DNA of 16,232 nucleotides from a virus (Duplodnaviria > Heunggongvirae > Uroviricota > Caudoviricetes): IMG/VR virus record IMGVR_UViG_2802429241_000006, positions 1-16,232 of that record. One strand, given 5' to 3'. Under the pieces are notes generated by a model. It ran no database searches. It was not told the DNA's origin and saw only the letters and a program-made list of their open reading frames with translations. Position 1 is the stretch's first letter, and each line of letters begins with the position of its first letter. The position numbers and the translations under genes are program-made. This document shows positions 1,132 through 16,232 of this stretch, piece after piece.

Positions 1132-1357
1132 CTTCCAGTATCCTCTTCAAAGCAGGGTGATCTGTGGCGATCACCTCAGGCTTGTTTACCATTCCGACAA
1201 AGCGAGCGCGTGGATCCACTCGCCAGTGCCTTCCTACTTTTTTGGGGAGAGGAAATATCATTCCGGCTTTAGCGTATTTACTTAACGTACCCGGAGTAGG
1301 GACCGGTTCACTGAATTCCTCTTTTGCCCACTCAGTGAGCAGAATAAGTCTTGCCAT
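1109..1357 (-). CDS. xis: Excisionase (lambda Xis-like), 82 aa
   Basis: Small ORF immediately upstream of int and overlapping its start by 23 nt. N-terminus LILLTEWAKEEF...IFPLPKKVGRHWRV follows the lambda Xis pattern (LTLQEWNARQ...IFPPPVKDGREY). Confidence 0.75.
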   Translation of the reverse strand: MARLILLTEWAKEEFSEPVPTPGTLSKYAKAGMIFPLPKKVGRHWRVDPRARFVGMVNKPEVIATDHPALKRILEDGAPAKI

Positions 1358-1421
1358 GAGCGTCGTTCACTAATCATGGTCGCCGCCACTATAGCTGGTG
1401 GGCGACGACCGGGGTTGAACA

Positions 1422-3893: not shown

Positions 3894-4016
3894 TTTGTTT
3901 TAACCTCATTACAGATTTAAGGATGAACAAATCCCTGCCATTGCTGGCATATAAGAATCAAATCTGATGTATTCATTAAGCTGAATGTCGTATTGTGGCA
4001 GTTATTTTATTACTGC

Positions 4017-4238
4017 TCACCATGACTCTGCTTTTACAGGTAAACCATCACGACCAAGGAAGACTTTAATCATGGTTTCCTTAATACAGTGTTGTGTGGA
4101 AAAATCACGAATATAGAGCCGTTGTTTTTTAATGTTGTTTACCGAAGCAATATATGTTCTTCCTTTATGAATAACATAATCACCGGGAGTCACGCACTGA
4201 CGAGGAATCTCATCAGTTCCGAAGTGATGAGCAATCAT
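4017..4238 (-). CDS. kilR: KilR-like FtsZ-inhibiting killing protein (Rac prophage type), 73 aa
   Basis: Protein [22 protein letters not shown]...[18 protein letters not shown] closely matches my recollection of Rac KilR. The ORF track extends to 4250 (MEII...), but GGAG lies 6 nt upstream of the internal ATG at 4238, giving the expected 73 aa. Confidence 0.75.
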
Positions 4239-4804
4239 AATTATCTCCATTTTTACAAATGAACTTTGTTGATGCGGTGCCTGGTGCCTCCAGGTGACGT
4301 TAACCAGTTAACAATTAACGCCGGATACAGAGAATCCACCCATAACACTGTTTTTGGTTTTAACTGTTCCGCGTGCGCTTAGCCGCATTCACCGCATCAC
4401 AAAATTCACTTTAAAAAGGGCGGCAGAGCAGTCACGGAGTAAAACTGATACCGCCAAACGCCACCAGAAAATTGATAACAGAGGGCGTTGTAGCGGGGGT
4501 GTCACTTAAGCGTATGGTCAACCTGACAACCCGGTGTCCTCAACGGGGAAGGAATAACCCCGCCATACTTACCGCCGCGCCATTTCGCGGAGTGCCACAA
4601 CCGGAAGCGCACGGTCGACGAAAATTTAACGACAGGCTATCTATGAACCAGCAACCTCGCCGTGCGCTTTCGTGTTATGGTCTGACTTTTCAGGGAAATA
4701 TCCTTTCAGTAAACTGTCAGTGCCGGATGCTCACCCGTGTCCGGCGCACGCACTCCACCTCACCCGTGGAGAACTCCTTAATCACCAACCCTCAGGAGGG
4801 TGAA

Positions 4805-5080
4805 ATGTCGACTGAAAATGATGAAATCATTAACTCCCTGATACGCCAGATTAATAATTTTGATAAAGCATTGCAGCATGCTGCGGCGCGTAGTGATATA
4901 ACTCTTTTAGCAATTTCATTTCTTGCATCTGTTATGGATAAAAATGAAGTCGTACGACAGAGTCTTGTTGATTATATCGACTCGCTTCAACCCGGCACTT
5001 TCAATCATGAGAGCTTCAATCATGAGAAAGAGCATGTTAAATCTGTTATTAATTCTCTTGTTTTGAATCAAAAGAATTAA
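4805..5080 (+). CDS. Hypothetical protein, 91 aa
   Basis: ATG at 4805 preceded by AGGAGG (4794..4799) at 5 nt spacing. Only plus-strand gene in the early-left region. The 111 upstream in-frame codons of track ORF 4472..5080 begin with TTG, lack an RBS and are Arg-rich, so are treated as non-coding. Confidence 0.5.
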   Translation: MSTENDEIINSLIRQINNFDKALQHAAARSDITLLAISFLASVMDKNEVVRQSLVDYIDSLQPGTFNHESFNHEKEHVKSVINSLVLNQKN

Positions 5081-5390
5081 TGCTTTTTGTTGCAAAGTAA
5101 TTTTCAAGGGGTTCTATTCGAATCCCTTTCTTTTTCATTAACAAGCCAAACCCCTTATCAATGATGTTCATTAATTCCAGGAAGTATTTTTCATGCAAAT
5201 CCTGGTTATCAGAGAGTTGCTTCTCTTCGTACAACCCGATAAAGGCGCGACGCACGTTACCGGATATATTATCGATGGTTTCTTTTTCTACGGTACTCAG
5301 GTCAAGAGTCGCCAGTTGGGAACGAACTATATTCGCTGCCATTTCCTGGAATGGTATTGGTAAATCTTTAAATTCCATCGTCAACCTCAT
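5049..5390 (-). CDS. Hypothetical early-left operon protein, 113 aa
   Basis: ORF in the same orientation as, and tightly packed with, neighbouring minus-strand genes (stop of upstream gene at 5394). No recognisable motif. Confidence 0.5.
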   Translation of the reverse strand: MRLTMEFKDLPIPFQEMAANIVRSQLATLDLSTVEKETIDNISGNVRRAFIGLYEEKQLSDNQDLHEKYFLELMNIIDKGFGLLMKKKGIRIEPLENYFATKSINSFDSKQEN

Positions 5391-5393
5391 CAG

Positions 5394-5609
5394 TCAGTAG
5401 TTTTCAATCACTCGTGAAACGTTTAATGCCGCGCTTTTTGCCAGAGTGGTAATATCCTGCTCCGCTGACGCCAGTTCTTTAGAGAGGCGCTCTTTATAGT
5501 CAGCAGCCCGCTTCAGGTCATTAATGGCGCGTATCTTCCCGCACATCCATTCGTAAATTTCATCATCGGTATAGCCTGGTGCGATGATGATGGGTTCTGG
5601 TTTCTGCAT
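5394..5609 (-). CDS. Hypothetical early-left operon protein, 71 aa
   Basis: ORF on the minus strand, closely spaced with the downstream gene; coding-like composition (MQKPEPIIIAPGYTDDEIYEW...). No recognisable motif. Confidence 0.5.
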   Translation of the reverse strand: MQKPEPIIIAPGYTDDEIYEWMCGKIRAINDLKRAADYKERLSKELASAEQDITTLAKSAALNVSRVIENY

Positions 5610-5638
5610 ACTGATTCCTCGCGGTGCTGCTTCGCTTA

Positions 5639-5767
5639 TCAGCCGTTAGATTTTGCCGAGCTGGAAAGCGCCTGTTTAAACTCACTGAAGCTGAGAGCTT
5701 CTTCGCCTTTGGCAAGGCCTTCGAAGTATTCTTCGTAAGCCTTTTCCATGATTGTGTCGAAATCCAT
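5639..5767 (-). CDS. Candidate small ORF, 42 aa (MDFDTIMEKAYEEYFEGLAKGEEALSFSEFKQALSSSAKSNG)
   Basis: ATG at 5767 with AGGTGA RBS-like motif 5 nt upstream. Start lies 2 nt after the stop of the upstream small ORF. Below the track length cutoff. The overlapping 69-aa track ORF in another frame is Arg-rich and GTG-initiated. Confidence 0.3.
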   Translation of the reverse strand: MDFDTIMEKAYEEYFEGLAKGEEALSFSEFKQALSSSAKSNG

Positions 5768-5768
5768 A

Positions 5769-5924
5769 TCACTCACCTGAATTTCTTTCCTGCCAGCGAC
5801 GCGCACCAGATTCGGTTTTAAACGTTTTGCTTTTGGTATACGTCATCGCGGTGAACGTACCGTCCTGGTTTGGGAACACGCCGTACACCAGAGATTCGTT
5901 GTTGCCAAGATCGATAGTATCCAT
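5769..5924 (-). CDS. Candidate small protein, 51 aa (MDTIDLGNNESLVYGVFPNQDGTF...)
   Basis: Internal ATG at 5924 with GAGG 6 nt upstream. The track ORF extends to 6005, but that upstream part lacks an RBS. Confidence 0.35.
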   Translation of the reverse strand: MDTIDLGNNESLVYGVFPNQDGTFTAMTYTKSKTFKTESGARRWQERNSGE

Positions 5925-6216
5925 GTTGACCTCATTTCCCCTTAACGCCGGGGTAGCGGAACAAAAACCTGCTGCATAGTTATTAAAGTTGAACCCTGCC
6001 GTCATGTTCTTACGCCTCGGGCTGGCTACTTACCCCCTGACCACTGCCTGGTAACTCGAAGTATTGCCCTGCATTCTGTGGGATGGGGTGAGGGAATGAA
6101 TGAAGTTTAGAAAAACGAACTTTTCAGGTCAATGTTTTTTTATCAAAACATTTTAGGCAGGCAGCTGTTAAGCCATCACCACGATGGCATACAGTTAATC
6201 AAATAGATGAGGTTGG

Positions 6217-6855
6217 TTAAATATCTTGTTGAATTTTAAAGCATACGCCCAATATGCAAGATAGATCATCCAGCATAATTGAAGGGTAGCGAGGATTCGT
6301 GGGGACTAAAAGAATATCCGGCCCTTCTATCTCCAGTTTACGAATGACAGGTGTTGTGGTCCCTTTGGGTAAGGCAAGGACAATATTTCCTGGTTGTACG
6401 GTTCGATCGGGATCAACAAAAACTGTTGAACCATTTGGGATGGAAACTCCCCCACCAGATGTTGACATACTGTCACTCTCTAGAACAACTGCAAAGGTAT
6501 TGGCCGGGATTTCTCCGACAAGCTGCACACAAGAGGTTATTGAGGAATTTTTCATATAATCACTCCAGCTTGCTGCCTGCTGAAGTGATAGTAGCGGAAC
6601 CGTTTTTATCGGCGGTAAAGATAGATCAAGCGAATCACCTGTATTTAACTCTCCTCCATTAAGAAGCCAATTTTCGTTTACTTTCAATATCTTTGCCAGT
6701 GAAGTTATGTAACGCGAGGACGGCGCTCCTCCACCGTTCATCCATTGACTTACGGAGCCTTTTGATGCGCCAGTGGCATTGACAAGGTCTTTGCCCTTCA
6801 GGTTTAGCGCATGCATACGTTGGGTTATGCGTTCAGATATTGTTTGCTTGCTCAT
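6217..6855 (-). CDS. cI: Phage CI-like repressor, 212 aa (XRE-type HTH plus LexA/S24 peptidase domain)
   Basis: N-terminal HTH (GKDLVNATGASKGSVSQWMNG). C-terminal S24 signature with Ser in ESDSMS and a downstream Lys (VIRKL). Divergently placed relative to the Cro-like gene, a classic immunity-region layout. Confidence 0.85.
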   Translation of the reverse strand: MSKQTISERITQRMHALNLKGKDLVNATGASKGSVSQWMNGGGAPSSRYITSLAKILKVNENWLLNGGELNTGDSLDLSLPPIKTVPLLSLQQAASWSDYMKNSSITSCVQLVGEIPANTFAVVLESDSMSTSGGGVSIPNGSTVFVDPDRTVQPGNIVLALPKGTTTPVIRKLEIEGPDILLVPTNPRYPSIMLDDLSCILGVCFKIQQDI

Positions 6856-6888
6856 GTTTTGATTTTAAAACACAGATGGTTTTGTTTC

Positions 6889-6917
6889 TTGACTTTCTTT
6901 GGTTTTGATTATTAAAC
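6889..6917 (+). promoter_or_regulatory. Candidate PR-like sigma70 promoter for the rightward early operon
   Basis: TTGACT at 6889..6894 and a TATTAA-like -10 about 15-16 bp downstream, ahead of the cro-like RBS (GGAG 6937..6940). GTTTTGATT occurs at 6856..6864 and 6902..6910, flanking the -35. Prediction by eye only. Confidence 0.3.
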
Positions 6918-6946
6918 TTTTGACGTTCAGTTTTATGGAGCGACTC

Positions 6947-7177
6947 ATGAAAAAATCAGAAGTATTAGGCTATTTTGGCGGAGTTGTTAAAACAGCCGCA
7001 GCTCTAGGAACGTCAAAAACCACAGTCAGCATGTGGGGGGAAGAGGTTCCGTGGAAATGGGCGTTGCTAATTCAGGCAGTCACTGCCGGGGCGCTCAAAT
7101 ATGAGTTACACATACCGACGGTTGTCATTCCCGGTTCTGATCATAATCCGCCTTCTAACCAAGGGGGGGATTCATGA
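6947..7177 (+). CDS. Cro-like / YdaS-family small DNA-binding regulator, 76 aa
   Basis: ATG at 6947 with GGAG 6 nt upstream. Divergent from the CI-like repressor. Small protein with an HTH-like region (KTAAALGTSKTTVSMWG). Stop overlaps the next gene start (ATGA at 7174..7177). Confidence 0.6.
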   Translation: MKKSEVLGYFGGVVKTAAALGTSKTTVSMWGEEVPWKWALLIQAVTAGALKYELHIPTVVIPGSDHNPPSNQGGDS

Positions 7178-7599
7178 AAATCAAGCATGAACACATCCGC
7201 ATGGCGATGAATGCCTGGGCGCGTCCTGATGGCGAAAAAGTTCCAGCAGCTGGAATAACCCAGGCTTATTTTGAGTTGGGTATGACGTTTCCTGAACTGT
7301 ATGACGATAGCCATCCGGAAGCCCTGGCTCGCAATACCCAGAAAATTTTCCGCTGGGTAGAGAAAGACACCCCTGATGCAGTTGAAAAAATTCAGGCGTT
7401 GTTACCAGCGATCGAAAAGGCAATGCCACCTTTGCTGGTGGCCAGAATGCGCAGCCACAGTTCAGCTTATTTTCGGGAGCTGGTGGAGACGCGGGAGCGA
7501 CTGGTGAGAGACGCTGATGATTTTGTCGCAGTGGCAATCGCCGGTTTCAATCAGATGAACCGTGGTGGCCCGGCAGGAAATGCTGTGGCAGTACATTGA
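7174..7599 (+). CDS. ydaT: YdaT-like protein, 141 aa (CII-like early regulator; annotated as toxin YdaT family in databases)
   Basis: N-terminus MKIKHEHI matches my recollection of Rac YdaT. Translationally coupled to the Cro-like gene. Sits in the position lambda cII occupies. Confidence 0.6.
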   Translation: MKIKHEHIRMAMNAWARPDGEKVPAAGITQAYFELGMTFPELYDDSHPEALARNTQKIFRWVEKDTPDAVEKIQALLPAIEKAMPPLLVARMRSHSSAYFRELVETRERLVRDADDFVAVAIAGFNQMNRGGPAGNAVAVH

Positions 7600-7670
7600 C
7601 TGACAATAGCCATATCGAATCGCTTCCGGCAACTCGTGAGTAAAAAGATTCGGTATCAGAAGAGGTGAGT

Positions 7671-8741
7671 ATGGCTAACGCCTGGCTCAGATTATGGCAT
7701 GACATGCCAAATGACCCTAAGTGGCGAACAATTGCCAGGGTGTCAGGGCAGCCAATTGCAACAGTGATGGCAGTGTATATCCACCTCCTGGTGAGCGCGT
7801 CACGAAATGTCACGCGAGGTCACATTGATGTCACGACAGAAGATTTGGCAAGTGCGCTCGACGTGACAGAAGAGGTAATTGATTCAATTTTGCAGACGAT
7901 GCAGGGGCGGGTACTTGATGGTGATTTAATCACTGGATGGGAAAAACGCCAGGTGCTGAAAGAGGACAACGGCAATATTTCGCAAACCGCAAAATCTCCT
8001 GCAGAGCGCAAGAGGGCGCAGCGAGAGAGGGAAAGAAAGCGGGAACAAAATGGCGATTGTCACGGCGCGTCACGAAATGTCACGCACATGTCACGACGAG
8101 TCACGACAGATAAAGATACAGATAAAGATACAGATCAAGAAGATCAAAACACTATGGTCCATGGCGTAAAAAACGCCACGAACCAGGCAGGGGATGTTCA
8201 GACCGTCAATCCTGGTCAGCCAGCAGGCACGACACCGGAAGCCGATTCAGCGTATGCGCTGAAAGCCGATTCGGGCGCTGTGCAGCAGGTGATGACAGCA
8301 TGGACGGAGCAATCACACCAACTGCAGCAGCCTGAAGCCGATTCCGCCATTCAGCGGGAAGCCGATCGGGTAGTCCCGGAAAACACCGGGCAGCCTGTGG
8401 GACGAGTGGATTATCCGGATGTGTTCGAACAGGTCTGGCGGGAATACCCGTTGCGTGCCGGGGCAAACCCGAAGAAATCCGCTTTCAGTGCCTGGAAGGC
8501 CAGATTACGCGAGGGGGTGCCACCAGAGGCCATGCTGGATGGCGTGAGGCGTTACGCAAGATACCTGGCGGCTACCGGGAAAACGGGAACGGAATTTGTT
8601 CAGCGAGCGACGACGTTTTTTGGACCGGACCGGAATTTTGAAAACCCCTGGTTGCTCCCGGTAAGCGGCACGAACAACCAGCGTTGTGTTAATCATATTT
8701 CTGAACCGGACACCGAAATTCCGCCTGGATTCAGAGGGTAA
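7671..8741 (+). CDS. Phage replication initiation protein (O-like replisome organiser), 356 aa
   Basis: ATG at 7671 with AGAGG 5 nt upstream (track GTG at 7665 is an alternative). N-terminal region AWLRLWHDMPNDPKWRTIA resembles replisome-organiser N-domains. The gene carries internal iteron clusters as lambda O does, and sits after the cro/cII-like genes. Confidence 0.65.
   Translation: MANAWLRLWHDMPNDPKWRTIARVSGQPIATVMAVYIHLLVSASRNVTRGHIDVTTEDLASALDVTEEVIDSILQTMQGRVLDGDLITGWEKRQVLKEDNGNISQTAKSPAERKRAQRERERKREQNGDCHGASRNVTHMSRRVTTDKDTDKDTDQEDQNTMVHGVKNATNQAGDVQTVNPGQPAGTTPEADSAYALKADSGAVQQVMTAWTEQSHQLQQPEADSAIQREADRVVPENTGQPVGRVDYPDVFEQVWREYPLRAGANPKKSAFSAWKARLREGVPPEAMLDGVRRYARYLAATGKTGTEFVQRATTFFGPDRNFENPWLLPVSGTNNQRCVNHISEPDTEIPPGFRG
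7797..7867. repeat. Iteron cluster 1: four direct GTCAC(G/A) hexamers at about 10-bp spacing plus one inverted copy
   Basis: GTCACG at 7799, 7809 and 7830, GTCACA at 7819, and CGTGAC (inverted) at 7862. Shares the 21-bp string GCGCGTCACGAAATGTCACGC with cluster 2. Confidence 0.55.
8059..8150. repeat. Iteron cluster 2 (five direct GTCACG at about 10-bp spacing) followed by an A-rich tandem repeat; candidate replication origin core
   Basis: GTCACG at 8059, 8069, 8079, 8090 and 8100. Directly followed by GATAAAGATACA x2 and GATCAAGAAGATCAAAAC (8106..8150), resembling a DNA-unwinding element. Lies inside the O-like gene as lambda ori lies inside O. Confidence 0.5.
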
Positions 8742-8778
8742 CAGATTTCAGGTCATGGGGTAATTTTCAGGAGGGCTT

Positions 8779-9123
8779 GTGGCAAAAGTTTTTACTCCCG
8801 AACTGCGGGAAGAAGTGAAGGCGCGCATTGTGGAACTGGTACGCAGAGATGGGCGAAAAACGCGTAAACAACTGGAAAATGAAACCGGGGCGACGAGACA
8901 CCTGATAGAAGTTCTGGCGAAAGAGCTGGTAGTTAGTGGCGCAGTATATGGTTCAGGACATGGAATATTTCCTTCGGAGCAGGCTCGTAAGGACTGGGGA
9001 AAAGCCCGCAAAAAAATGTCGAGAGCGGCAGTGAAAAAGAAGAGCGACCCTGACCTGATTTATTCATTGCTAGATGGCGAAATACGCCGTTACAACAGAC
9101 GACAGAACATAATTTGTCGCTAG
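8779..9123 (+). CDS. Hypothetical basic protein, 114 aa
   Basis: GTG start at 8779 with AGGAGG (8769..8774) upstream. Lys/Arg-rich. Lies directly after the O-like gene, where a helicase loader would be expected; no P-loop motif seen. Confidence 0.5.
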   Translation: MAKVFTPELREEVKARIVELVRRDGRKTRKQLENETGATRHLIEVLAKELVVSGAVYGSGHGIFPSEQARKDWGKARKKMSRAAVKKKSDPDLIYSLLDGEIRRYNRRQNIICR

Positions 9124-9331
9124 TGCCGTCAGAGCGAAGTTATGCAGCGCATACTGGAATTTTATCAGGGAAATGTTCGGTATTTATTGAAGTGACGAAA
9201 TTAAAGAGCATTAGTTCAGATATTAATTGACACTTCGATGGCACAGGGCCAGAACTAGACTGGTTGTCAGCTTTGAGCCTGGTGAACGTTGGTATCGTTA
9301 GTTTGTATTAATCAACGGAGAATAGGCCAAA

Positions 9332-9361
9332 TGACTTTTCTTTGCCTCTTTTAATTATAAT
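9332..9361 (+). promoter_or_regulatory. Candidate sigma70 promoter for the large NTPase gene
   Basis: Perfect TATAAT at 9356..9361 with TGACTT/GACTTT -35-like hexamer 17-18 bp upstream, in the AT-rich intergenic region 9124..9429. Prediction by eye. Confidence 0.3.
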
Positions 9362-9429
9362 TCAAGTTCAATTGATTACATTGAAGTACTAATGTGAGTC
9401 TGTCAAACAAATAGCTCAAGGAATAGGTC

Positions 9430-12228
9430 ATGTGGGGAAGTGAAAACAAACAAAATCTGGACGTACTGGATCCTGTGCAGTTGGCGCGTATCAAAGCGGT
9501 ACACCGGGGGTTCCTTTACCAGCATCTTTACGCTGTAGGCTGCTTACTTTTGGCGCAGAGGGCTGCTATGGACTCAGTAACTGTCGAGCTTGATGAGGAT
9601 ATTGAGCTGAAATCCAAACAGGAATGTCTCTACATTCAGGTTAAAACCCGTTCAAAACCTATTATGCCCAACGATGTGTCAGGGGCTCTTGAGCGATTTG
9701 TAAAGCTCAGAAATGAGCATACTTCGGCAAACCGCGAAGGGGTGGCTTCTTTTGTGATTATTGTAAACCAGGCGCCTGGACCGCTGCTTCAGAAGATGAT
9801 TGACGATAAAAAGCTTCCTTCTGATGTTCTCATTGTCTGGCCCCAGTCGACAGCTGGACGTCACCCGGCACTTCCGCCCGCATGGAGTACTCTGGCTGAT
9901 GCGGCCACATGGTGTATCGCAGAAGCAGAAAAGCTGAAATTTTCACTATTGTCCCCAGAATCCTTGATTTGGAAGTTAGCAGGGTTGGTTCAGCTTGCCG
10001 CCACCGGAGGCGATACCAATGGGCAACATACGTTTTTCACGGAAGAACTTACTGAACTATTTGAACAGTTGATCGTTCAGCTACAGGACTTTCCTGCGCC
10101 ACCAGCACTGTACCGTCCACAAAACGAAGAACCTTCTCTCACATCTGGTGAGCGGATCCGTATCCTTTGTGGGCTCTCAGGTGCAGGCAAGACAGCTTGG
10201 GCCGCACAGGCCGCATTACACTCCACTGCACTTTGTGCTTATTACGACACCGGTGATCTTCCCGGTCCAGCTCTGGCCAGTACGCTGGTGCGCGAGATGG
10301 TTGCTAGATTTACAGCCCGTGACCAAAACGGTTTGCGCAGGATTTTGCTCCCCGGTGCCAGTGGTTTTGAGGCTCTTAGGAGTTTTGATACCTACCTGAA
10401 AGAGCACGGTACCACCTTGGTGCTGGTTCTGGATAACGCCCATCGTGTGCCTGCGGAAAATCTACGGGATGTTCTGAATGCAACTACACATATTCGTTTT
10501 GTGCTGTTGTGCCAGCCTCACGAAAACGTTCGCGAACTGGAGGTCATGACGGGGCTACAGCGCGAGAGCCTGCAGGGATGGAATCTCGATACGGTAGCTG
10601 TCGTTGTAAACGATATCGGAGGATTTGCCACCGCCATGGGATACGAGCAGCTACGGGCTTACACTGGTGGTCTTCCCCTGTATGTAGAGAGCGCCGCAAA
10701 AATCGCCGTTTCTGATTATGAGCGTAGTGTCGATGCTCTGTGTGCTGAACTCCAGCAACAAACCCATACTGCGGAAACCGCCCAAGAAATTATTCTGTCA
10801 CGTGTATTTCAGGGATTTGAATCACTACTTCAGAGCGCGCTGGCATTGTTCAGTCTCTCTGACGTAGGGCTGAGTCGTGAAGAGATTTCTACGCTCCTAA
10901 TCAATTCGCTGAACATTTCACCAAGCAGTGCGGCTTCTTTAATTAGGAAAATGCGCGCTACTGGCACTATTGAAATTTATGGAAACCATACCCTGAAGGT
11001 ACATGATGCTGTCAGGGGGCTAGGACTGCAACATCTGGAACTGATGGATCAGGGGATATCGAACAAAGCGCTACTAGCGCTGAAAGACCTTTTAGTTGAA
11101 AGTCTTCATAATACCCGCAATACAAAACGGTTATCGTTGTTGACTCAACTTTATATTAAGCTCAATGATGTCACGACGTTGATCGAACTCTCAGGCCAAG
11201 AAATGTTTTATGAGATGGGCGTGACGGTCGACATTCTTTCAAGCCTGGAGCGTGCTGCAACATCGGACTTATTGGGACCTGTTCATAAATTCTGGGCATT
11301 GGATGGTCTTGTTTTCGTTGAGCTTAAAGACGGAATATCCGACCAGATTGCTCAGAGGTTAAACATCATGGGAGCTTTACTTGCGGAGCACAAGTTCGGT
11401 TATCAAGAAGAGATGGCCTATGCAATGAAACGAATGTTATTTTCGGCAGAAAGCAATGATGCACGAGCAGTTCAAAAGCTGGCACAGGAAGTCCGCCCCC
11501 AACTCCCAGATGAAGAACATAAACGCATCTTTGACTACAACCATGCTATTGCACTCTGGAGATTAAAAAAACTCAAGGATGCTGAAACATTAAGCTGTAA
11601 TGTTATACAAGGGTACTATTCTTTATTTGGTATCACACCTGCTGATGTCATAGGAAAAAACGCCGACGCATTATGGAAAACTATTAATCATTCCGAAAAT
11701 ATGCAGGAACACTTTAAACATATGGCTGATGCACTGGAGTTGCTGGCCAGAATTCGTGATGCGCAGGGAAAAATGTCACCATTACTGCGTATTCATTCGA
11801 TGAAGTTCTACAATCTGGCCATGGCCCCGGAATCCATGGTCAGGGTGGGCCAAGATCTGGCGGATGAGTTTGTTGCCATAAAGGATTACGACGGTGCCAA
11901 GGAAGTCATGGAGCAACATGTCCTGCCGGTTGTCAATGAGGCAGGTCTAGTACATCGACTGATTCAGGTTCGAAGCCAGTACGCAGTCATATTGGCACTA
12001 TCGGGTCAGCATAAAGCAGCTGATGTCGAAATGCAGCGCCTTGCTCCCTATATCGAAGGCCTCACAGGTGTACAGCGTCAAGAAATCCAAAATCAATCAA
12101 ATTACATCGTACAGCTTGCCCATAAAGCAGCAAAGACTAAATTAACTGAAGTTTTTGGTGCGGTCGGCCGGAATGAACAATGCCCCTGTGGCTCGGGAAT
12201 AAAGTACAAAAAATGTCACGGTGCCTGA
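9430..12228 (+). CDS. Candidate anti-phage STAND-like NTPase, 932 aa: N-terminal PD-(D/E)xK-like nuclease region, central P-loop NTPase, helical C-terminal region, terminal SEC-C-type zinc motif
   Basis: Unambiguous long ORF with AAGGA RBS. Walker A CGLSGAGKT at about aa 248-256 and Walker B-like TTLVLVLDNAH about 80 aa later. N-terminus has a GF-x-YQ motif and a D...QxK pattern (VELDEDIELKS...LYIQVKT) resembling Cap4/Mrr-type nucleases. Final residues NEQCPCGSGIKYKKCHGA match the SEC-C metal-binding motif. About 570 aa of predicted helical sequence follow the NTPase. Flanked by non-coding DNA on both sides. Confidence 0.6.
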   Translation: MWGSENKQNLDVLDPVQLARIKAVHRGFLYQHLYAVGCLLLAQRAAMDSVTVELDEDIELKSKQECLYIQVKTRSKPIMPNDVSGALERFVKLRNEHTSANREGVASFVIIVNQAPGPLLQKMIDDKKLPSDVLIVWPQSTAGRHPALPPAWSTLADAATWCIAEAEKLKFSLLSPESLIWKLAGLVQLAATGGDTNGQHTFFTEELTELFEQLIVQLQDFPAPPALYRPQNEEPSLTSGERIRILCGLSGAGKTAWAAQAALHSTALCAYYDTGDLPGPALASTLVREMVARFTARDQNGLRRILLPGASGFEALRSFDTYLKEHGTTLVLVLDNAHRVPAENLRDVLNATTHIRFVLLCQPHENVRELEVMTGLQRESLQGWNLDTVAVVVNDIGGFATAMGYEQLRAYTGGLPLYVESAAKIAVSDYERSVDALCAELQQQTHTAETAQEIILSRVFQGFESLLQSALALFSLSDVGLSREEISTLLINSLNISPSSAASLIRKMRATGTIEIYGNHTLKVHDAVRGLGLQHLELMDQGISNKALLALKDLLVESLHNTRNTKRLSLLTQLYIKLNDVTTLIELSGQEMFYEMGVTVDILSSLERAATSDLLGPVHKFWALDGLVFVELKDGISDQIAQRLNIMGALLAEHKFGYQEEMAYAMKRMLFSAESNDARAVQKLAQEVRPQLPDEEHKRIFDYNHAIALWRLKKLKDAETLSCNVIQGYYSLFGITPADVIGKNADALWKTINHSENMQEHFKHMADALELLARIRDAQGKMSPLLRIHSMKFYNLAMAPESMVRVGQDLADEFVAIKDYDGAKEVMEQHVLPVVNEAGLVHRLIQVRSQYAVILALSGQHKAADVEMQRLAPYIEGLTGVQRQEIQNQSNYIVQLAHKAAKTKLTEVFGAVGRNEQCPCGSGIKYKKCHGA

Positions 12229-12505
12229 GTCTTTGTACGACCATGCAGGCCTTATTGTCTTGCTATTGCTCTTATGGTTCGCCTTTCTGATTGATTTCAT
12301 ATTGGCGAGGTAACGGGAGTTAAGTAGAATGGCTGCGGGTGCTTGAGGCTATCTGTCTCAGGCATGAACACCAAAGGCAGATAGAGAAAAGCCCCAGTTA
12401 ACATTACGCGTCCTGCAAGACGCTTAACATTAATCTGAGGCTCAATCTATGAACGGCAAATCTAGGTTAGCCTCTTACGAGCCGAAAGGCAAGGAGAAGC
12501 AGGCT

Positions 12506-12661
12506 ATGAAGCAGCAAAAGGCGATGTTAATCGCCCTGATCGTCATCTGTTTAACCGTCATAGTGACGGCACTGGTAACGAGGAAAGACCTCTGCGAGGT
12601 ACGAATCCGAACCGGCCAGACGGAGGTCGCTGTCTTCACAGCTTACGAACCTGAGGAGTAA
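12506..12661 (+). CDS. hokD: Hok/Gef-family membrane toxin, 51 aa (HokD/RelF-like)
   Basis: Protein MKQQKAMLIALIVICLTVIVTALVTRKDLCEVRIRTGQTEVAVFTAYEPEE matches my recollection of E. coli HokD (RelF). AAGGAG RBS lies upstream of the ATG at 12506. The track ORF's 19-codon in-frame extension from 12449 is unlikely to be translated. Confidence 0.85.
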   Translation: MKQQKAMLIALIVICLTVIVTALVTRKDLCEVRIRTGQTEVAVFTAYEPEE

Positions 12662-12730
12662 GAGACCAGGCGAGGGAGAAATCCCTCGCCACCTCTGATG
12701 AGTCAGGCATCCTCAACGCACCCGCACTTA

Positions 12731-12756
12731 ACCCGCTTCGGCGGGTTTTGTTTTTT
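12731..12756 (+). terminator. Rho-independent terminator downstream of hok
   Basis: Stem ACCCGC / GCGGGT with TTCG tetraloop (12731..12746) followed by TTTGTTTTTT. Confidence 0.7.
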
Positions 12757-12828
12757 CCTGGCATTCTGGTTTACAATTCGCACGTCAGCCTGAACACCTG
12801 ACACCTGCTGCGCCAGCAGAGAAAACAG

Positions 12829-13101
12829 ATGGCGCACAAAACCAAATTTCACAATTCTGATACCGACCTTGCCATCCGGCATGGGCGGCGTTCACACGCA
12901 TTTAAAACCGACTGGTACCAACACCCACCATGTACTGAAGAACAGGCCGAATGGCTAATTCATAACTACCGCAGACGCGGATACGAGATTAAGAAAGCCC
13001 TCAGCCTCGATTATCGTCACTGGATAATCTATGTTAGGCTCCCTTATTCCGAACGCCCACCGCGCCCATCCCGCACATACCAGCAACGGATCTGGAGGTA
13101 A
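12829..13101 (+). CDS. Small prophage protein, 90 aa, Rem-like by position
   Basis: ORF between hokD-like and ydfU-like genes, where K-12 Qin carries rem. Its stop is 1 nt before the next gene's GTG start. The Rem sequence itself is not recalled, so the name is positional only. Confidence 0.45.
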   Translation: MAHKTKFHNSDTDLAIRHGRRSHAFKTDWYQHPPCTEEQAEWLIHNYRRRGYEIKKALSLDYRHWIIYVRLPYSERPPRPSRTYQQRIWR

Positions 13102-13102
13102 C

Positions 13103-14152
13103 GTGCGGATATTACTTCGACCTGTTCTGGTACCGGAACTCGGGCTGGTGGTCCTTAGGCCGGGCCGTGAATCCATGCAAGTATTTCATAACCCTCGAGT
13201 GCTGGTGGAGCCTGAACCGAAAAGCATGCGCGGTCTGCCGTCCGGAGTCGTCCCTGCCGTTCGCCAGCCGCTGGCGGAGGATAAATCATTACTGCCATTT
13301 TTCAGCGATGAGCGGGTGATTCGTGCTGCTGGCGGCGCTGGTGCACTGTCTGACTGGCTGTTGCGTCATGTCAAATCCTGCCAGTGGCCTCATGGTGACT
13401 ATCATCACAGTGAAATCGTCATACATCGTTACGGTACCGGCGCGATGGTGTTGTGCTGGCACTGCGACAACCAGCTGCGTGACCAGACCTCCGAATCACT
13501 CGGGCAACTTGCTCACCAAAACCTGTCAGCATGGGTGATTGACGTCATACGCCATGCAATGAATGGCACGCAGGAGCGGGAATTATCGCTGGCTGAATTA
13601 TCCTGGTGGGCGGTCTGCAATCAGGTAGCGGACGCGCTACCGGAGGCAGTATTACGTCGTTCTCTGGGGTTACGTGCTGAAAAAATCCGCTCGCTTTACC
13701 GCGAGAGTGACATCATACCGGGAGAGCAGACAGCCACCAGTATACTGAAGCAGCGCACAAAAAATATTGTGCTACCGCCTCACGCCCACCAGCAACAGAA
13801 CCCACCACAGGAAAAGACGGAGGTCAGCATTGCCGTTGATCCGGAGTCTCCGGAATCTTTCATGAAGCGACCTAAACGTCGCCGCTGGGTAAATGAGAAA
13901 TACACGCGCTGGGTGAAGACACAGCCGTGTGCGTGTTGTGGTAAGCCAGCTGACGATCCCCATCACCTGATTGGTCATGGTCAGGGCGGAATGGGTACAA
14001 AAGCGCATGACCTCTTTGTGTTGCCTTTGTGCAGAAAGCATCACGACGAGCTGCATGCGGATACCGTGGCATTTGAAAAGAAGTATGGCTCCCAGCTGGA
14101 GCTGATATTTCGTTTTATCGATCGTGCGCTGGCAATTGGCGTATTGGCGTAA
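13103..14152 (+). CDS. ydfU: DUF968-family prophage protein (YdfU-like), 349 aa, with C-terminal HNH-like Cys/His motif
   Basis: GTG at 13103 with GGAGG 4-5 nt upstream gives 349 aa, the length recalled for K-12 YdfU. C-terminus CACCGK...HHLIGHGQGG...LPLCRKHHDELH is HNH-like. Sits in the Qin order hokD-rem-ydfU-quuQ. The track ORF start at 13031 is an unlikely extension. Confidence 0.65.
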   Translation: MRILLRPVLVPELGLVVLRPGRESMQVFHNPRVLVEPEPKSMRGLPSGVVPAVRQPLAEDKSLLPFFSDERVIRAAGGAGALSDWLLRHVKSCQWPHGDYHHSEIVIHRYGTGAMVLCWHCDNQLRDQTSESLGQLAHQNLSAWVIDVIRHAMNGTQERELSLAELSWWAVCNQVADALPEAVLRRSLGLRAEKIRSLYRESDIIPGEQTATSILKQRTKNIVLPPHAHQQQNPPQEKTEVSIAVDPESPESFMKRPKRRRWVNEKYTRWVKTQPCACCGKPADDPHHLIGHGQGGMGTKAHDLFVLPLCRKHHDELHADTVAFEKKYGSQLELIFRFIDRALAIGVLA

Positions 14153-14165
14153 GTGGAGAACGAGC

Positions 14166-14918
14166 ATGAACCTTGAAGCCTTACCAAAATATTACTCCCC
14201 AAAACCTCCAAAATTGAGCGATGACGCACCGGCGACAGACTCAGGTGGTTTAGCAATTACGGATGTGATGGCTGCGCAGGGGATGGTGCAGTCGAAAGCA
14301 CCGCTTGGGTTTGCCTTATTCCTGGCAAAAGTTGGTGTTCAGAACCCTCAGTTTGCGATTGAAGGTCTGCTCAATTACGCGATGGCACTGGATAACCCGA
14401 TATTGAACAAATTGAGTGAAGAAACCCGGTTACAGATCATCCCTTACCTTGTGAATTTTGCCTTTGCTGATTATTCCAGGTCTGCGGCAAGTAAGGCTCG
14501 CTGTGAACATTGTGCAGGTACGGGATTTCATAATGTATTGCGCGAAGTGGTGAAACACTACAGAAGTGGGGAATCTGTTATCAAGGAAGAATGGGGGAAG
14601 GAACTATGTCAGCATTGCCATGGTAAGGGCGAAGTCAGCACAGCGTGCAGAGGGTGTAAGGGTAAAGGTATTGTCCTGGATGAAAAAAGAACCCGGCTTC
14701 ATGGCGTACCGGTTTATAAGATTTGTGGGCGTTGTAATGGAAACAGGTTTAGTCGTTTACCGACCACACTGGCACGACGTCATGTCCAGAAGTTGGTACC
14801 GGACCTGACAGATTATCAGTGGTACAAGGGGTATGCGGACGTCATTGATAAACTGGTAACAAAGTGCTGGCAGGAAGAAGCGTATGCAGAAGCACAACTG
14901 AGAAAAGTGACAAGATAA
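14166..14918 (+). CDS. quuQ: Late-gene antitermination protein Q (Q82/QuuQ-like), 250 aa
   Basis: ATG at 14166 gives 250 aa, the length recalled for QuuQ. Four CxxC pairs (CEHCAG, CQHCHG, CRGCKG, CGRCNG) are consistent with the zinc-binding Q antiterminator family. Position downstream of ydfU-like matches Qin. Confidence 0.65.
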   Translation: MNLEALPKYYSPKPPKLSDDAPATDSGGLAITDVMAAQGMVQSKAPLGFALFLAKVGVQNPQFAIEGLLNYAMALDNPILNKLSEETRLQIIPYLVNFAFADYSRSAASKARCEHCAGTGFHNVLREVVKHYRSGESVIKEEWGKELCQHCHGKGEVSTACRGCKGKGIVLDEKRTRLHGVPVYKICGRCNGNRFSRLPTTLARRHVQKLVPDLTDYQWYKGYADVIDKLVTKCWQEEAYAEAQLRKVTR

Positions 14919-15647
14919 AAGATTTTCACCGAACGATGGCGACATAATGATTGTATTTTCTAAGGAAACGTGCAAAGAGTTTTCCAATGATGAGCCTTAT
15001 ATGCATACCGGTGGAAAATATCAATAAGCCGCGCAGAGTGGTTTTTTTGTGGACATAAACTTTGTGCAGAACGGTAACCATTCTGGTTGCCGTGAATGCA
15101 GTTTTTTTACATTGCTGGCTTTTTTAGATTTGTGTTAGTCATTGATATTAACAAGAAGGGGAAAAGACATGCTAAAACGGCAGGATATGAAGGAAACGGT
15201 TATGCGTGAATGTTCCAGTGTGATTAACCATATCATCTTGGGAAGCCATCCTGATGCAGGGAAGAGGTAACAGTAACGTGCATCAATCAGGCTATCGATG
15301 TATTACCGGTTTGTTACCCATGAAGAAAATTAAGGTGATAACGAAACTGATTTTATAGGTGTCTTGTCAGAGTGTTGCGACGAAACTGGTGTTGGCAGTG
15401 TAGGGAAAATAGTAGGATGAAAATTATAAATTGCTTTAAATGAGCTTGATTTCCCTCATGTTATGAGATATTTGTCTTATATTGCTGGTTAATTATGAAA
15501 ATTTTTGTAAATCTACAGCAATAAAATCCATATTAATTAAAGCACTAGATGCGTTTCTGATTTGTGCATGAAACATACATACCATAATGATTAATTGCAT
15601 CTATAATTACAGATACAGCATTGTGCTGTTAAAAAACTGGAGTCCCC

Positions 15648-15755
15648 ATGAATACATTATATGTAAGTGATTCAAATGAAAAATCTCATGACAGGAATAA
15701 AAACAATGAGGATAGTAAGGGTAAGGATAATAAAAAAGACAACCGGAAAGAGTAA
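15648..15755 (+). CDS. Candidate small highly charged protein, 35 aa (MNTLYVSDSNEKSHDRNKNNEDSKGKDNKKDNRKE)
   Basis: ATG with GGAG 6 nt upstream, inside an AT-rich region and followed downstream by a strong terminator. The low-complexity composition could also be an artefact of AT-rich DNA. Confidence 0.25.
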   Translation: MNTLYVSDSNEKSHDRNKNNEDSKGKDNKKDNRKE

Positions 15756-15790
15756 ATAATCTTTCCTGCATAAAAATACTAGGGTGGAAT

Positions 15791-15910
15791 ATGTCAGAAC
15801 ATCCAGATTTTGATGACCGTAAGCCTGATGATGAGCCCGTTGAGCGTCCTGATGAGGGGCAACCATTGAACCCTTTTTCACCGGATGATAAAAGAGAACC
15901 TATTATTTAG
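15791..15910 (+). CDS. Candidate small acidic protein, 39 aa (MSEHPDFDDRKPDDEPVERPDEGQPLNPFSPDDKREPII)
   Basis: ATG with GGGTGG upstream. Terminator hairpin lies about 50 nt downstream. Composition is less AT-biased than its surroundings. Confidence 0.3.
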   Translation: MSEHPDFDDRKPDDEPVERPDEGQPLNPFSPDDKREPII

Positions 15911-15962
15911 ATATAGCAGAATATAGCCGTTTAAAGTAGGTTGTGTTTTGTTGCTATCCTTA

Positions 15963-15992
15963 AACCACCTCCACAGGAGGTGGTTTTTTACT
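15963..15992 (+). terminator. Rho-independent terminator (plus-strand orientation)
   Basis: Perfect 10-bp stem AACCACCTCC / GGAGGTGGTT with ACAG loop, followed by TTTTTTA. Confidence 0.65.
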
Positions 15993-16046
15993 AATGGAAC
16001 ATTAATTGGTAGATGTGATTGTGTACGACTTATGGGAGGCTTAAGA

Positions 16047-16232
16047 TTATTTTCTGCCAATAATAAAACCAAGCGTTAACCCTATGCTTAGAGCGACCAC
16101 CACGCTAGTCAGTGGATAATTTCTAAATTTATCTTTAACGTTTTCTTTGCCTGCCTGCAAAGCATCGTCAGCACATGATGCATATTTTTTGACAGTATTA
16201 ACTATTTCGTTTTCAGATTGATTTGAAGTCAT
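16047..16232 (-). CDS. Small membrane-anchored protein, 61 aa as seen, possibly truncated at the window edge (ElaB/YqjD-like C-terminal helix)
   Basis: ORF begins at the last base of the window, so the true start may lie beyond it. C-terminus NYPLTSVVVALSIGLTLGFIIGRK looks like a single transmembrane anchor of the DUF883 type. Weak, motif-level assignment. Confidence 0.35.
   Translation of the reverse strand: MTSNQSENEIVNTVKKYASCADDALQAGKENVKDKFRNYPLTSVVVALSIGLTLGFIIGRK

Follow-up and report, generated by a model that had tools for sequence, protein, structure and literature searches.

A probable mosaic moron island between Q and the late promoter of a Qin/SfV-like lambdoid prophage, bounded by a putative relic promoter

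Features of the region after Q

The window, by which we mean the whole stretch of 16,232 nt that was analysed, is on sequence grounds a Qin/SfV-like lambdoid prophage. From the antiterminator gene Q to the right end of the window the following features are found.

14166 to 14918, plus strand: antiterminator Q of the YdfT/QuuQ type, 250 aa, Q-lambda family
14861 to 15002, plus strand: copy 1 of a repeat of about 141 bp, made up of the last 58 nt of Q and 84 nt downstream
14951 to 14994, plus strand: putative PR' relic (within copy 1), from an alignment that includes lambda PR' and seven intact members of the family
15026 to 15050, plus strand: first terminator, a degenerate tR' homologue (7-bp stem with 2 G-U pairs, then T7)
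15065 to 15108, plus strand: second terminator, intact (4+10-bp hairpin, then G and U7)
15169 to 15270, plus strand: ORF33, 33 codons, gene debris as judged from homology and haplotypes
15270 to 15423, plus strand: remnant of a decayed lambda ren-like exclusion gene (blastn, tblastn, phrog_142)
15424 to 15647, no strand: AT-rich spacer without ORF, about 30% GC (ORF list, composition)
15648 to 15755, plus strand: ORF35, candidate 35-aa protein rich in Lys, Asn and Asp, with a GGAG Shine-Dalgarno motif 5 nt before the ATG
15791 to 15910, plus strand: ORF39, candidate 39-aa acidic, proline-rich protein, with GGTGGA before the ATG
15962 to 15989, plus strand: strong intrinsic terminator, AAACCACCTCC-ACA-GGAGGTGGTTT plus TTT (RNA fold)
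16047 to 16232, minus strand: gene of a 61-aa protein (RefSeq WP_000203370.1, hypothetical protein; phrog_11629)

A profile search placed Q in PF03589 (E 5.3e-53, 177.6 bits with a cutoff of 26.7), i.e. by sequence it is a member of the Q-lambda family and not of the alternatives Q21 (PF06530) or Q82 (PF06323), as these families are defined in PMC9388147. Also a match to PF00684 (E 3.5e-8) was obtained, which represents a zinc-finger insert of the DnaJ type (CXXCXGXG) that lambda Q lacks. In the PDB only Q-lambda entries were matched (7UBM, E 6.4e-37), and the amino acid identity is 93% to the Q protein of K-12 Qin and 96% to that of SfV. The advice of the first-pass annotation to compare the region with phage 82-type late regions was therefore off target, since Q82 belongs to PF06323.

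The AT-rich tract that had been described after Q is clearly present, as the GC content of 14919-16046 is 36.5% against 48.2% for 1-14918, and no other 1128-nt stretch in the window falls below 42.6%. The minimum, of about 29-32%, lies at 15300-15750. Of 5426 complete E. coli genomes only 40 have the region, in each case with at least 98% identity, which fits a young, horizontally spread island, and it is missing from the otherwise collinear K-12, SC418 and ST70. It thus combines absence in collinear relatives with deviant base composition, two of the marks by which a moron is recognised, and the earlier suggestion of foreign cargo after Q is borne out. Two deposited complete phage genomes, PhiR63_1 and HannyBb, have the same arrangement as the prophages described below; it may be noted that PhiR63_1 is a member of a plaque-forming panel of temperate phages. 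Among 23 copies of the region there are 26 variable sites in all. Between the two haplotypes there are 0 differences across 15583-15897 as against about 1 per 45 nt in 15083-15582. Scans of 14000-16232 gave only sub-threshold matches to Rfam even at a permissive E (best score 21.5 bits against a gathering value of 54, all E > 1), no tRNA genes and 0 matches to anti-phage defence systems in PADLOC. Stx phages carry tRNA genes at the corresponding position, and the window is without them.

The duplicated promoter segment and the late genes beyond the window

Comparison with K-12 Qin places the window from 15003 on inside a 1.55-kb insert, whose left boundary is copy 1 of the repeat; copy 2 lies beyond the window. 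K-12 Qin 4455-4595 matches the relative SC487 twice (locus L003, positions 6763-6903 and 8456-8596), the intervening 6904-8455 has no K-12 counterpart, and this relative shares 97.8% identity with K-12 from copy 2 onward. Between the two copies the identity is 71%. Copy 2 consists of a 58-nt stub of Q and, after it, a lambda-like PR', pause element and tR' in intact form, and it matches lambda PR' in TAAAAT, 6 nt and AACGATGGG. In relatives that are 99.9% identical to the window it lies about 380 nt beyond the window end, and in 19 of 20 loci the intact PR' core is located 1661-1693 nt downstream of copy 1.

On aligning copy 1 we obtained TTGTAT in the -35 position, the 17-nt spacer TTTCTAAGGAAACGTGC in the position of the Q-binding element, AAAGAG in the -10 position, TTTTCC, and AATGATGAG in the position of the sigma-dependent pause element, with a predicted +1 at 14986. 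The family consensus reads TTGCAT, TTTTCAAAAAATATGGA, TAAAAT or TAAGAT, 6 nt, AA(C/T)GATGGG, and lambda PR' reads TTGACT, 17 nt, TAAATT, TGACTC, AACGATGGG, in which the pause element is AACGAT at +1 to +6, then GGG (PMC4005639). The -10 hexamer of copy 1 lacks both T's (T-12 and T-7) of the TAAAAT or TAAGAT of intact members, and its spacer, as aligned, differs at about 9 of 17 positions from the conserved TTTTCAAAAAA(T/C)ATGGA, which is also present in SfV, whose Q is 96% identical. Taken together, the 23 nt of spacer plus -10 show at most 2 differences among intact members and about 11 in copy 1. The pause element AATGAT is a variant that also occurs in the intact copies of loci L006 and L012 and of ST70, and is followed in copy 1 by GAG in place of the consensus GGG. 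An AACGAT at 14932-14937 was rejected as pause element because SfV, K-12 and copy 2 are without the C there and the true element aligns 54 nt downstream. A search of the literature on ydfT, quuQ and the Qin late promoter retrieved no earlier description of this family promoter.

Both terminators after copy 1 have counterparts in the family. The first (15026-15050) aligns with a rho-independent terminator annotated in SfV and with the CCCGC..GCGGG-T4-7 hairpin of K-12 and copy 2, and is calculated at only about -7.8 kcal/mol. The copy-1 leader RNA folds worse than its shuffles (z = +1.5), against z = -2.7 and -2.9 for the leader RNAs of intact copies. The leader RNAs of intact members differ widely from each other, despite the near-invariant spacer plus -10. 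The second hairpin (15065-15108) had been noticed, near 15068-15115, as a weak hairpin and possible tR'-like terminator. Its terminator-like character holds and its sequence is partly conserved in SfV, where it is the second of two post-PR' terminators, but at -20.1 kcal/mol (z = -2.4) it is not weak. An additional T6 run is present at 15122-15127.

We infer that copy 1 no longer launches Q-modified late transcription, because the conserved -10 and Q-binding spacer are lost and the stem of the first terminator is weakened. The consensus promoter scan found no plus-strand promoter at copy 1, but is uninformative, as it would miss the intact family PR' too (scores 8/12). Divergence from SfV is about 20-50% across most segments downstream of 14957 and its clustering in the promoter core is not significant (Fisher P = 0.19), so that the argument for a relic is drawn from the constancy of the core in intact copies; copy 1 could also be a diverged lineage variant instead of a decayed one. 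Copy 1 still has TG two bases before its -10 position, and A-11 and T-7 are kept if the hexamer is shifted to AAGAGT; weak promoter activity is therefore possible.

The statement that no lysis cassette follows Q is correct inside the window, which ends at the start codon of the 61-aa gene, but relatives carry the cassette beyond this point. All 19 relatives with enough downstream DNA continue into the late region, and on going rightward the holin gene is met at +2251 from the last base of the window, then lysozyme and Rz/Rz1. The order after copy 2 is ynfS, cspF, cspB, ynfU, holin, lysozyme, Rz/Rz1 in 19 of 19 loci; in the usual Qin late region YdfR lies between holin and lysozyme. Over the 1314 bases of 14919-16232, two of the loci (L006 and L012) show a single difference from the window (99.92% identity), and in L006 the holin, lysozyme and Rz/Rz1 ORFs are followed by one that we take by eye to be the small terminase subunit. 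Late genes downstream of copy 1 in the same orientation are thus found in the relatives only, and there the second, intact cassette intervenes.

Two other explanations for these observations were weighed. Copy 1 might be a working late promoter of altered sequence, with ORF35 and ORF39 as Q-dependent late genes in an stx-like position and with antiterminated transcription crossing the island into the lysis genes. Its place directly after Q fits the canonical cassette (PMC9388147). It still has a -35-like TTGTAT, a TG before the -10 position, a discriminator of 6 nt and AATGAT as a -10-like pause element, and the strong intact hairpin plus U7 at 15065-15108 lies downstream. Yet we consider it improbable, as the hexamer AAAGAG is without T-12 and T-7, the spacer shows its roughly nine differences even though Q is 93-96% identical to Q proteins served by the consensus spacer, and the pause element runs into GAG and not GGG. 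Also, nearly all carriers keep an intact PR'-tR' 1.66-1.69 kb downstream, a redundancy that would be hard to explain, and late transcription would meet the 61-aa gene, with its predicted strong promoter, head-on. Far less probable still is the earlier proposal that the prophage was truncated after Q or had its late genes replaced by foreign cargo. It draws on a window that holds no lysis gene, on an AT-rich region with pseudogene debris and on the fact that the order past 16232 is known from relatives and not from the source genome, and is opposed by the 19 of 19 relatives that reach holin and lysozyme, among them the two 99.92% identical loci and the two complete phage genomes. We hold that the prophage is probably not truncated, because every sequenced relative keeps the lysis genes about 2.2 kb past the window end. 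As the relatives and the complete phages continue to the lysis genes, the cargo would have been inserted ahead of the late operon and not in its place.

Contents of the island

The 33-codon ORF pointed out by the first-pass annotation does exist, but it reads as debris and not as a gene, with an orf47-like start and decayed ren sequence adjoining. Codons 1-10 are homologous to the start of SfV orf47 (phrog_331, winged-helix-like), and the remainder is unrelated and runs into the ren remnant. Close to the end of this ORF, two neighbouring codons each carry a non-synonymous difference between the two haplotypes (LG vs WR). A similarity of ORF33 to the N-terminus of a ren-like gene was suggestive by eye and not significant. 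As for the remnant itself, 15287-15406 is 72-74% identical in nucleotides to ren of lambda, 933W, phage 21 and others (blastn, E to 3e-13). In the undeleted haplotype, lambda Ren residues 29-93 are matched at E 2e-9 (tblastn, two-sequence set) with stops and a frame change, and the frame-repaired translation matches phrog_142 (Ren-like) at E 0.02. It is spread over at least two reading frames with in-frame stops, so that it lacks what would identify Ren, an uninterrupted family-like ORF of some 96 codons, and the ren-like sequence as read here is a pseudogene fragment. The copy in the window has in addition a 32-bp deletion after about 15290, the junction of which has no exact match in GTDB genomes or metagenomes.

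Further downstream, the two short RBS-preceded ORFs for charged peptides that had been noted are indeed present as ORF35 and ORF39, and the hairpin after them is perfect as described (15962-15986, 11-bp stem, 3-nt loop, T6 tail). Its calculated energy is -17.3 kcal/mol (z = -3.05) as read on the plus strand and -17.8 kcal/mol (z = -3.84) on the minus strand, where only UUUAAGG follows. It closes the stretch of ORF35 and ORF39 and parts it from the convergent gene, and its pattern has 0 matches in all GTDB species representatives. Together the two ORFs and the terminator plausibly form a small transcription unit for candidate microproteins. In the spacer 15424-15647 a perfect TATAAT occurs at 15602-15607, with no recognisable -35, and no plus-strand promoter there passes the consensus scan; likewise, apart from this isolated hexamer, the scan offers no promoter for the two ORFs.

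Relatives of ORF35 among 5.8 billion proteins were all from E. coli and 97-100% identical, with R16M, D27V, S23I and a frameshifted tail as natural variants. For ORF39 an exhaustive HMMER search of 1.84 billion representatives gave 2 matches, both about 97% identical, a word-based search also gave 2, and frameshifted and fused variants exist. Family scans of ORF35 gave 0 matches in Pfam, PADLOC and NCBIfam and one insignificant match in PHROGs (E 0.36), those of ORF39 (Pfam, PHROGs, NCBIfam, PADLOC) gave none, and neither ORF is called in the PGAP annotation. Of the 26 variable sites in the 23 copies, 3 fall inside ORF35 or ORF39 and all are non-synonymous; the substitution test, of low power on such near-identical copies, gave no sign of constraint. 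That one strand of 15420-15960 holds two ATG-initiated ORFs with 35 codons or more is only modestly unusual (shuffle P = 0.043).

We put it at about even odds that these small plus-strand ORFs are not genes at all, 15169-15960 being decaying filler or the source of a non-coding RNA that would end at the strong terminator, and the 61-aa gene the sole functional cargo. The restriction to 97-100% identical copies in both protein sets, the silence of PGAP, the three non-synonymous differences, the radical substitutions and frameshifted variants in nature, the low-complexity sequences next to demonstrable pseudogene debris and the marginal excess of ORFs (P = 0.043) are all in its favour. However, both ORFs have Shine-Dalgarno motifs at usable spacing, they stand in tandem with a perfect terminator within 55 nt, the haplotypes show 0 differences in 15583-15897 against about 1 per 45 nt in 15083-15582, and the frameshift variants may be assembly errors in homopolymers. 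A bolder proposal, which we regard as rather unlikely, is that ORF35, ORF39 and the terminator make up a unit expressed in the lysogen, encoding either two orphan charged disordered microproteins (one basic, one acidic) or an Hfq-type sRNA derived from the 3' end. Such a unit, captured on the upstream side of the late promoter, would escape Q control and have a host-directed or anti-phage role, and the relic PR' might fire weakly as its promoter or act as an insulator.

The convergent small membrane-protein gene is also where it had been reported (16047-16232, minus strand), the membrane segment being read by eye. Its 61-aa product matches phrog_11629 at E 5e-46, only near-identical relatives were found by homology search, and an NCBIfam scan gave nothing useful. 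It is the sole RefSeq-annotated gene of the island. An extended -10, TGcTATAAT, lies just past the window end (in the sequence of L006), and the gene is presumably expressed in the lysogen from this strong promoter of its own. The protein has a hydrophilic N-terminus and a C-terminal hydrophobic glycine-zipper-like stretch, tail-anchor-like by eye. In this tail, with basic residues at its end (GLTLGFIIGRK), it resembles the DUF883/ElaB-YqjD-YgaM proteins, and DUF883_C touches the same segment, but at E 0.14 and 12.3 bits the match does not reach the cutoff of 27 bits, and the 61-aa protein has no detectable homologues outside the island. It is also about 40 residues shorter than those proteins.

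Origin of the island and comparison with known systems

With a probability of about 0.7, we consider the region to be the left two-thirds of a mosaic moron island of about 1.55 kb between Q and the late promoter, in which copy 1 is a relic and copy 2 is intact. Recombination between lambdoid phages would have placed the island there, and recombination at the homology of Q end and PR' would have left a duplicated cassette, one copy of it without the conserved core. The PR' of copy 2 most likely serves the lysis genes. We infer this use, as well as expression of the cargo genes, on top of an architecture, homologies, a gene order in the relatives and RNA folds that were directly observed. As such the finding is ordinary, a moron island with one mildly interesting relic promoter. 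It does correct one kind of conclusion, in that truncation of a prophage should not be concluded from a window that ends before the lysis genes; between Q and holin, Qin-type phages routinely hold several kilobases of cargo. Also, direct alignment with lambda PR' (TAAAAT, 6 nt, AACGATGGG) finds the Qin/SfV late promoter, and would allow PR', pause element and tR' to be annotated across thousands of E. coli prophages.

With lambda the Qin family shares the layout of PR' element by element (-35, 17 nt, -10, 6 nt, AACGATGGG), an intrinsic terminator about 40-60 nt downstream of PR' in the manner of tR', and, in the window, a Q of the same protein family (PF03589; 7UBM). The differences are that this Q carries the additional DnaJ-type zinc-finger insert, that copy 1 appears to be without a usable -10 and conserved spacer and has a weakened first terminator, and that the intact PR' copy is displaced 1.66 kb downstream behind the 58-nt stub of Q. 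A Qin-type leader RNA would be about 60 nt, compared with the 194-nt 6S RNA of lambda. The ren remnant is recognisable over 120 nt (72-74% nucleotide identity) and over Ren residues 29-93, but stops and a frame change interrupt it, the copy in the window has the 32-bp deletion as well, and the remnant sits after Q and not after the replication gene P. K-12 Qin has the same Q type (93% identity) and the same downstream gene order as the relatives of the window (ydfT/quuQ, ynfS, cspF, cspB, ynfU, essQ, ydfR, rrrQ, rzpQ), whereas it has a single PR'-tR', 277 nt from Q to ynfS and no 1.55-kb island. Homology to SfV covers roughly the first 280 nt after Q and takes in the start of orf47. Stx phages (stx) and SfV (orf47, orf48) use the same slot for terminator-bounded, self-contained units of foreign base composition. 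Their cargo, however, follows the sole PR'-tR' and is transcribed by the Q-modified polymerase, whereas here the cargo genes are orphans and lie upstream of the intact PR', and are therefore probably not in the late transcript. The duplicated cassette would thus leave the cargo ahead of late control, opposite to the order in Stx phages.

Gene content around Q and the AT-rich segment

The following landmarks were identified in the window, along with a YdaT-like gene and replication genes.

1-1131, minus: lambda-type integrase, left end of the window
1422-3893, minus: 823-aa protein with a C-terminal Rv2179c-like 3′-5′ exoribonuclease domain, adjoining the integrase
6217-6855: S24 repressor
9430-12228, plus: 932-aa ORF of the nin region, with an N-terminal Cap4-type dsDNA endonuclease, an AAA_22 ATPase and a C-terminal SEC-C zinc motif
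12449-12661, plus: Hok/Gef type I toxin gene hok (PF01848, E 3e-23), upstream of ydfU
13031-14152: DUF968/YdfU
14166-14918: Q, Q-lambda family (PF03589; PDB 7UBM, E 6e-37)

The domains of the 932-aa ORF make it look like a candidate for an anti-phage defence gene carried by the prophage. Compared with lambda Q, the Q protein has an insert of about 46 residues (window 14511-14660, residues ~116-165) bearing two further CXXCXGXG motifs, giving, with those already there, four motifs and a zinc finger of DnaJ type (PF00684, E 3.5e-8) where Q-lambda has a single zinc-ribbon arm. The matches to PF03589 and 7UBM place Q outside the Q82 family (PF06323), and the comparison with 82-type late regions proposed in the first-pass annotation was thus misdirected.

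The segment after Q (14919-16046) has a GC content of 36.5%; the remainder of the window has 48.2%, with every other 1128-nt stretch at 42.6% or more. The three small ORFs, perfect hairpin and convergent 61-codon gene of the first-pass annotation lie where it placed them and were accurately described; the 11-bp hairpin with a T6 tail after the third ORF has a folding energy of -17.3 kcal/mol (z = -3.05). The hairpin with a T7 run that it called weak, near 15068..15115, lies at 15065-15108 and is stronger than was thought (-20.1 kcal/mol, z = -2.4). A tRNA scan and an Rfam search of 14000-16232 found no tRNA gene or Rfam family. A 51-codon ORF (14926-15081, minus), an annotated CDS in phage PhiR63_1, runs antisense over the first terminator and the relic promoter described below; neither Pfam nor PHROGs gave a family match, and it is probably spurious.

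Two copies of the late promoter segment

Aligning K-12 with SC487, a relative carrying the segment, gives two blocks. They share 141 nt of K-12 sequence, made up of the final 58 nt of Q and the next 83 nt, so that the stretch with the Q 3′ end and late promoter PR′ is doubled in island carriers; nothing in K-12 corresponds to SC487 6904-8455 (1552 bp), the equivalent of the window from 15003 on. A recent tandem duplication was rejected as the origin, since copy 1 (in the window) and copy 2 (beyond it) are 71% identical, Q and copy 1 being closest to phage SfV, with homology running to ~15200, and SC487 from copy 2 on being 97.8% identical to K-12. The insert is a recombinational mosaic.

The post-Q DNA of K-12, SC418 and ST70 (relatives without the island), SfV and three copy-2 sequences was aligned against lambda, and the PR′ elements of lambda and the Qin/SfV family match one for one. 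In lambda the sigma-70-dependent pause element consists of AACGAT at positions +1 to +6 and a GGG directly after it (PMC4005639).

PR′ elements (lambda; Qin/SfV family; window copy 1)
-35: TTGACT; TTGCAT; TTGTAT
17-nt spacer, position of the Q-binding element: TATTGAATAAAATTGGG; TTTTCAAAAAATATGGA; TTTCTAAGGAAACGTGC
-10: TAAATT; TAAAAT or TAAGAT; AAAGAG
Next 6 nt: TGACTC; 6 nt (K-12 TTTTTC); TTTTCC
Pause element and triplet: AACGAT-GGG; AA(C/T)GAT-GGG; AATGAT-GAG

Among intact members the 23-nt spacer plus -10 has at most two variable positions despite widely different leaders, and a clean CCCGC..GCGGG-T4-7 terminator, already annotated in SfV by its authors, lies ~40 nt past the pause element. 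In copy 1 both T's of the -10 hexamer are gone, ~9 of the 17 spacer positions differ, and the first terminator stem has only 7 bp left, two of them G-U pairs; the leader RNA fold has z = +1.5, where intact copies reach -2.7 and -2.9. Even so, the window Q shares 93-96% identity with Q proteins whose promoters are consensus. Divergence from SfV is high throughout the stretch after 14957 and not in the core alone, and copy 1 retains a TG upstream of the -10 position and a shifted hexamer, AAGAGT, that keeps A-11 and T-7; it could conceivably still act as a weak promoter. In 19 of 20 loci copy 1 is followed, 1661-1693 nt further downstream, by an intact core; in contig L006, copy 2 comprises a Q 3′-end stub of 58 nt and, after it, intact PR′, pause element and tR′, with a core identical to that of K-12 Qin. 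We infer from these alignments that the PR′ in use is copy 2, copy 1 being a relic. The late promoter driving the lysis genes would most likely lie just outside the window, because in L006 this stub and cassette occupy ~290-510 nt past its end. A block GATGGCGACATAATG (14936-14950), situated after the Q stop codon and before the -35, is conserved in all family members and has a recognisable lambda counterpart, GATGGCAACATATTA; it is a candidate UP element or another site.

The K-12 Qin order is Q, ynfS, cspF, cspB, ynfU, essQ, ydfR, rrrQ, rzpQ, and the same continuation was seen in every locus that has the segment and enough downstream DNA.

Downstream features in relatives (offset from the last base of the window)
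+292: Q stub and PR′ (L006 5690-5905, minus)
+770: cspF
+1283: cspB
+1862: ynfU
~+2251: holin, in 19/19 loci with enough downstream DNA
+2780 or +3344: lysozyme

L006 also codes for Rz/Rz1, and a further ORF there we take, by eye only, to be a small terminase subunit. As the relatives' loci, which supply all of this downstream DNA, continue to holin and lysozyme, the earlier suggestion of prophage truncation or late-gene replacement is not supported.

Small ORFs and gene remnants of the island

15169-15270, plus: ORF33
~15270-15423: decayed ren gene
15648-15755, plus: ORF35
15791-15910, plus: ORF39
16047-16232, minus: 61-aa gene

ORF33 has only its first 10 codons in common with SfV orf47 (phrog_331, winged-helix-like). 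Over 15287-15406 the ren remnant shares 72-74% identity with the ren genes of lambda, 933W and phage 21; its frame-repaired translation touches phrog_142, and in the haplotype without the 32-bp deletion described below, residues 29-93 of Ren can be made out, spread over two frames and broken by in-frame stops. An AT-rich spacer (~30% GC) with an isolated TATAAT at 15602-15607 follows.

The candidate ORFs ORF35 and ORF39 each have a Shine-Dalgarno motif, and the strong terminator closes the pair. A word search of 5.8 billion proteins found only near-identical E. coli copies of both; for ORF39 the same held when 1.84 billion representatives were searched exhaustively with HMMER. The excess of ORFs over shuffles is marginal (P = 0.043), all 3 nucleotide differences within the pair are non-synonymous, and among natural variants there are frameshifted tails and radical substitutions. 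Constraint is hinted at only by the stretch 15583-15897, across which the haplotypes do not differ. A 69-codon GTG-start ORF (15672-15881, minus), antisense to the pair, encodes a strongly hydrophobic C-terminus (LLFPVVFFIILTLTILIVFIPVMRFFI) and has no PADLOC match. It is probably an artefact, the mirror image of the Lys/Asn-rich frame on the plus strand; against this, it is located downstream of the 61-aa gene, and the hairpin of that gene has a poor U-tail on the minus strand.

The 61-aa gene is RefSeq-annotated and forms phrog_11629. Homology search returned only near-identical relatives of its product, which weakly resembles, below threshold, the C-terminal glycine zipper of DUF883. In relatives a predicted extended -10 promoter, TGcTATAAT, lies ~45 nt upstream of its ATG (L006 6085-6176, minus, just past the window end); between this promoter and the Q stub, L006 has a 29-codon ORF (MTTQSTLHKMTF...) on the opposite strand. 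None of these products matched the PADLOC defence-system models.

Distribution and reading of the segment

In E. coli, Q and the DNA to its left are common, but just 40 of 5426 complete genomes carry the segment 14919-16046, always at 98.2-98.6% identity, and PGAP calls nothing within it. It also occurs in 20 IMG/VR or metagenome contigs and two deposited complete phage genomes, HannyBb and PhiR63_1, the latter from a series of plaque-forming temperate phages. Two of the contigs, L006 and L012, match the window at all but one of 1314 positions and have the same deletion of 32 bp (GGCTGCAAATAAATGGCTTACGCCGGAAATCT) at 15290/15291, which removes part of the ren remnant. The deletion is recent, since all other copies keep the 32 bp, including locus L033, otherwise of the same haplotype.

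The slot between Q and the lysis genes is well known as variable. Judged from sequence comparison, the segment is probably an ordinary cargo (moron) island in this slot of a Qin/SfV-type prophage. Mildly novel are its three orphan mini-ORFs and the duplicated Q-end/PR′ cassette, whose Q-proximal copy is without the conserved core, so that the cargo would lie upstream of late control.
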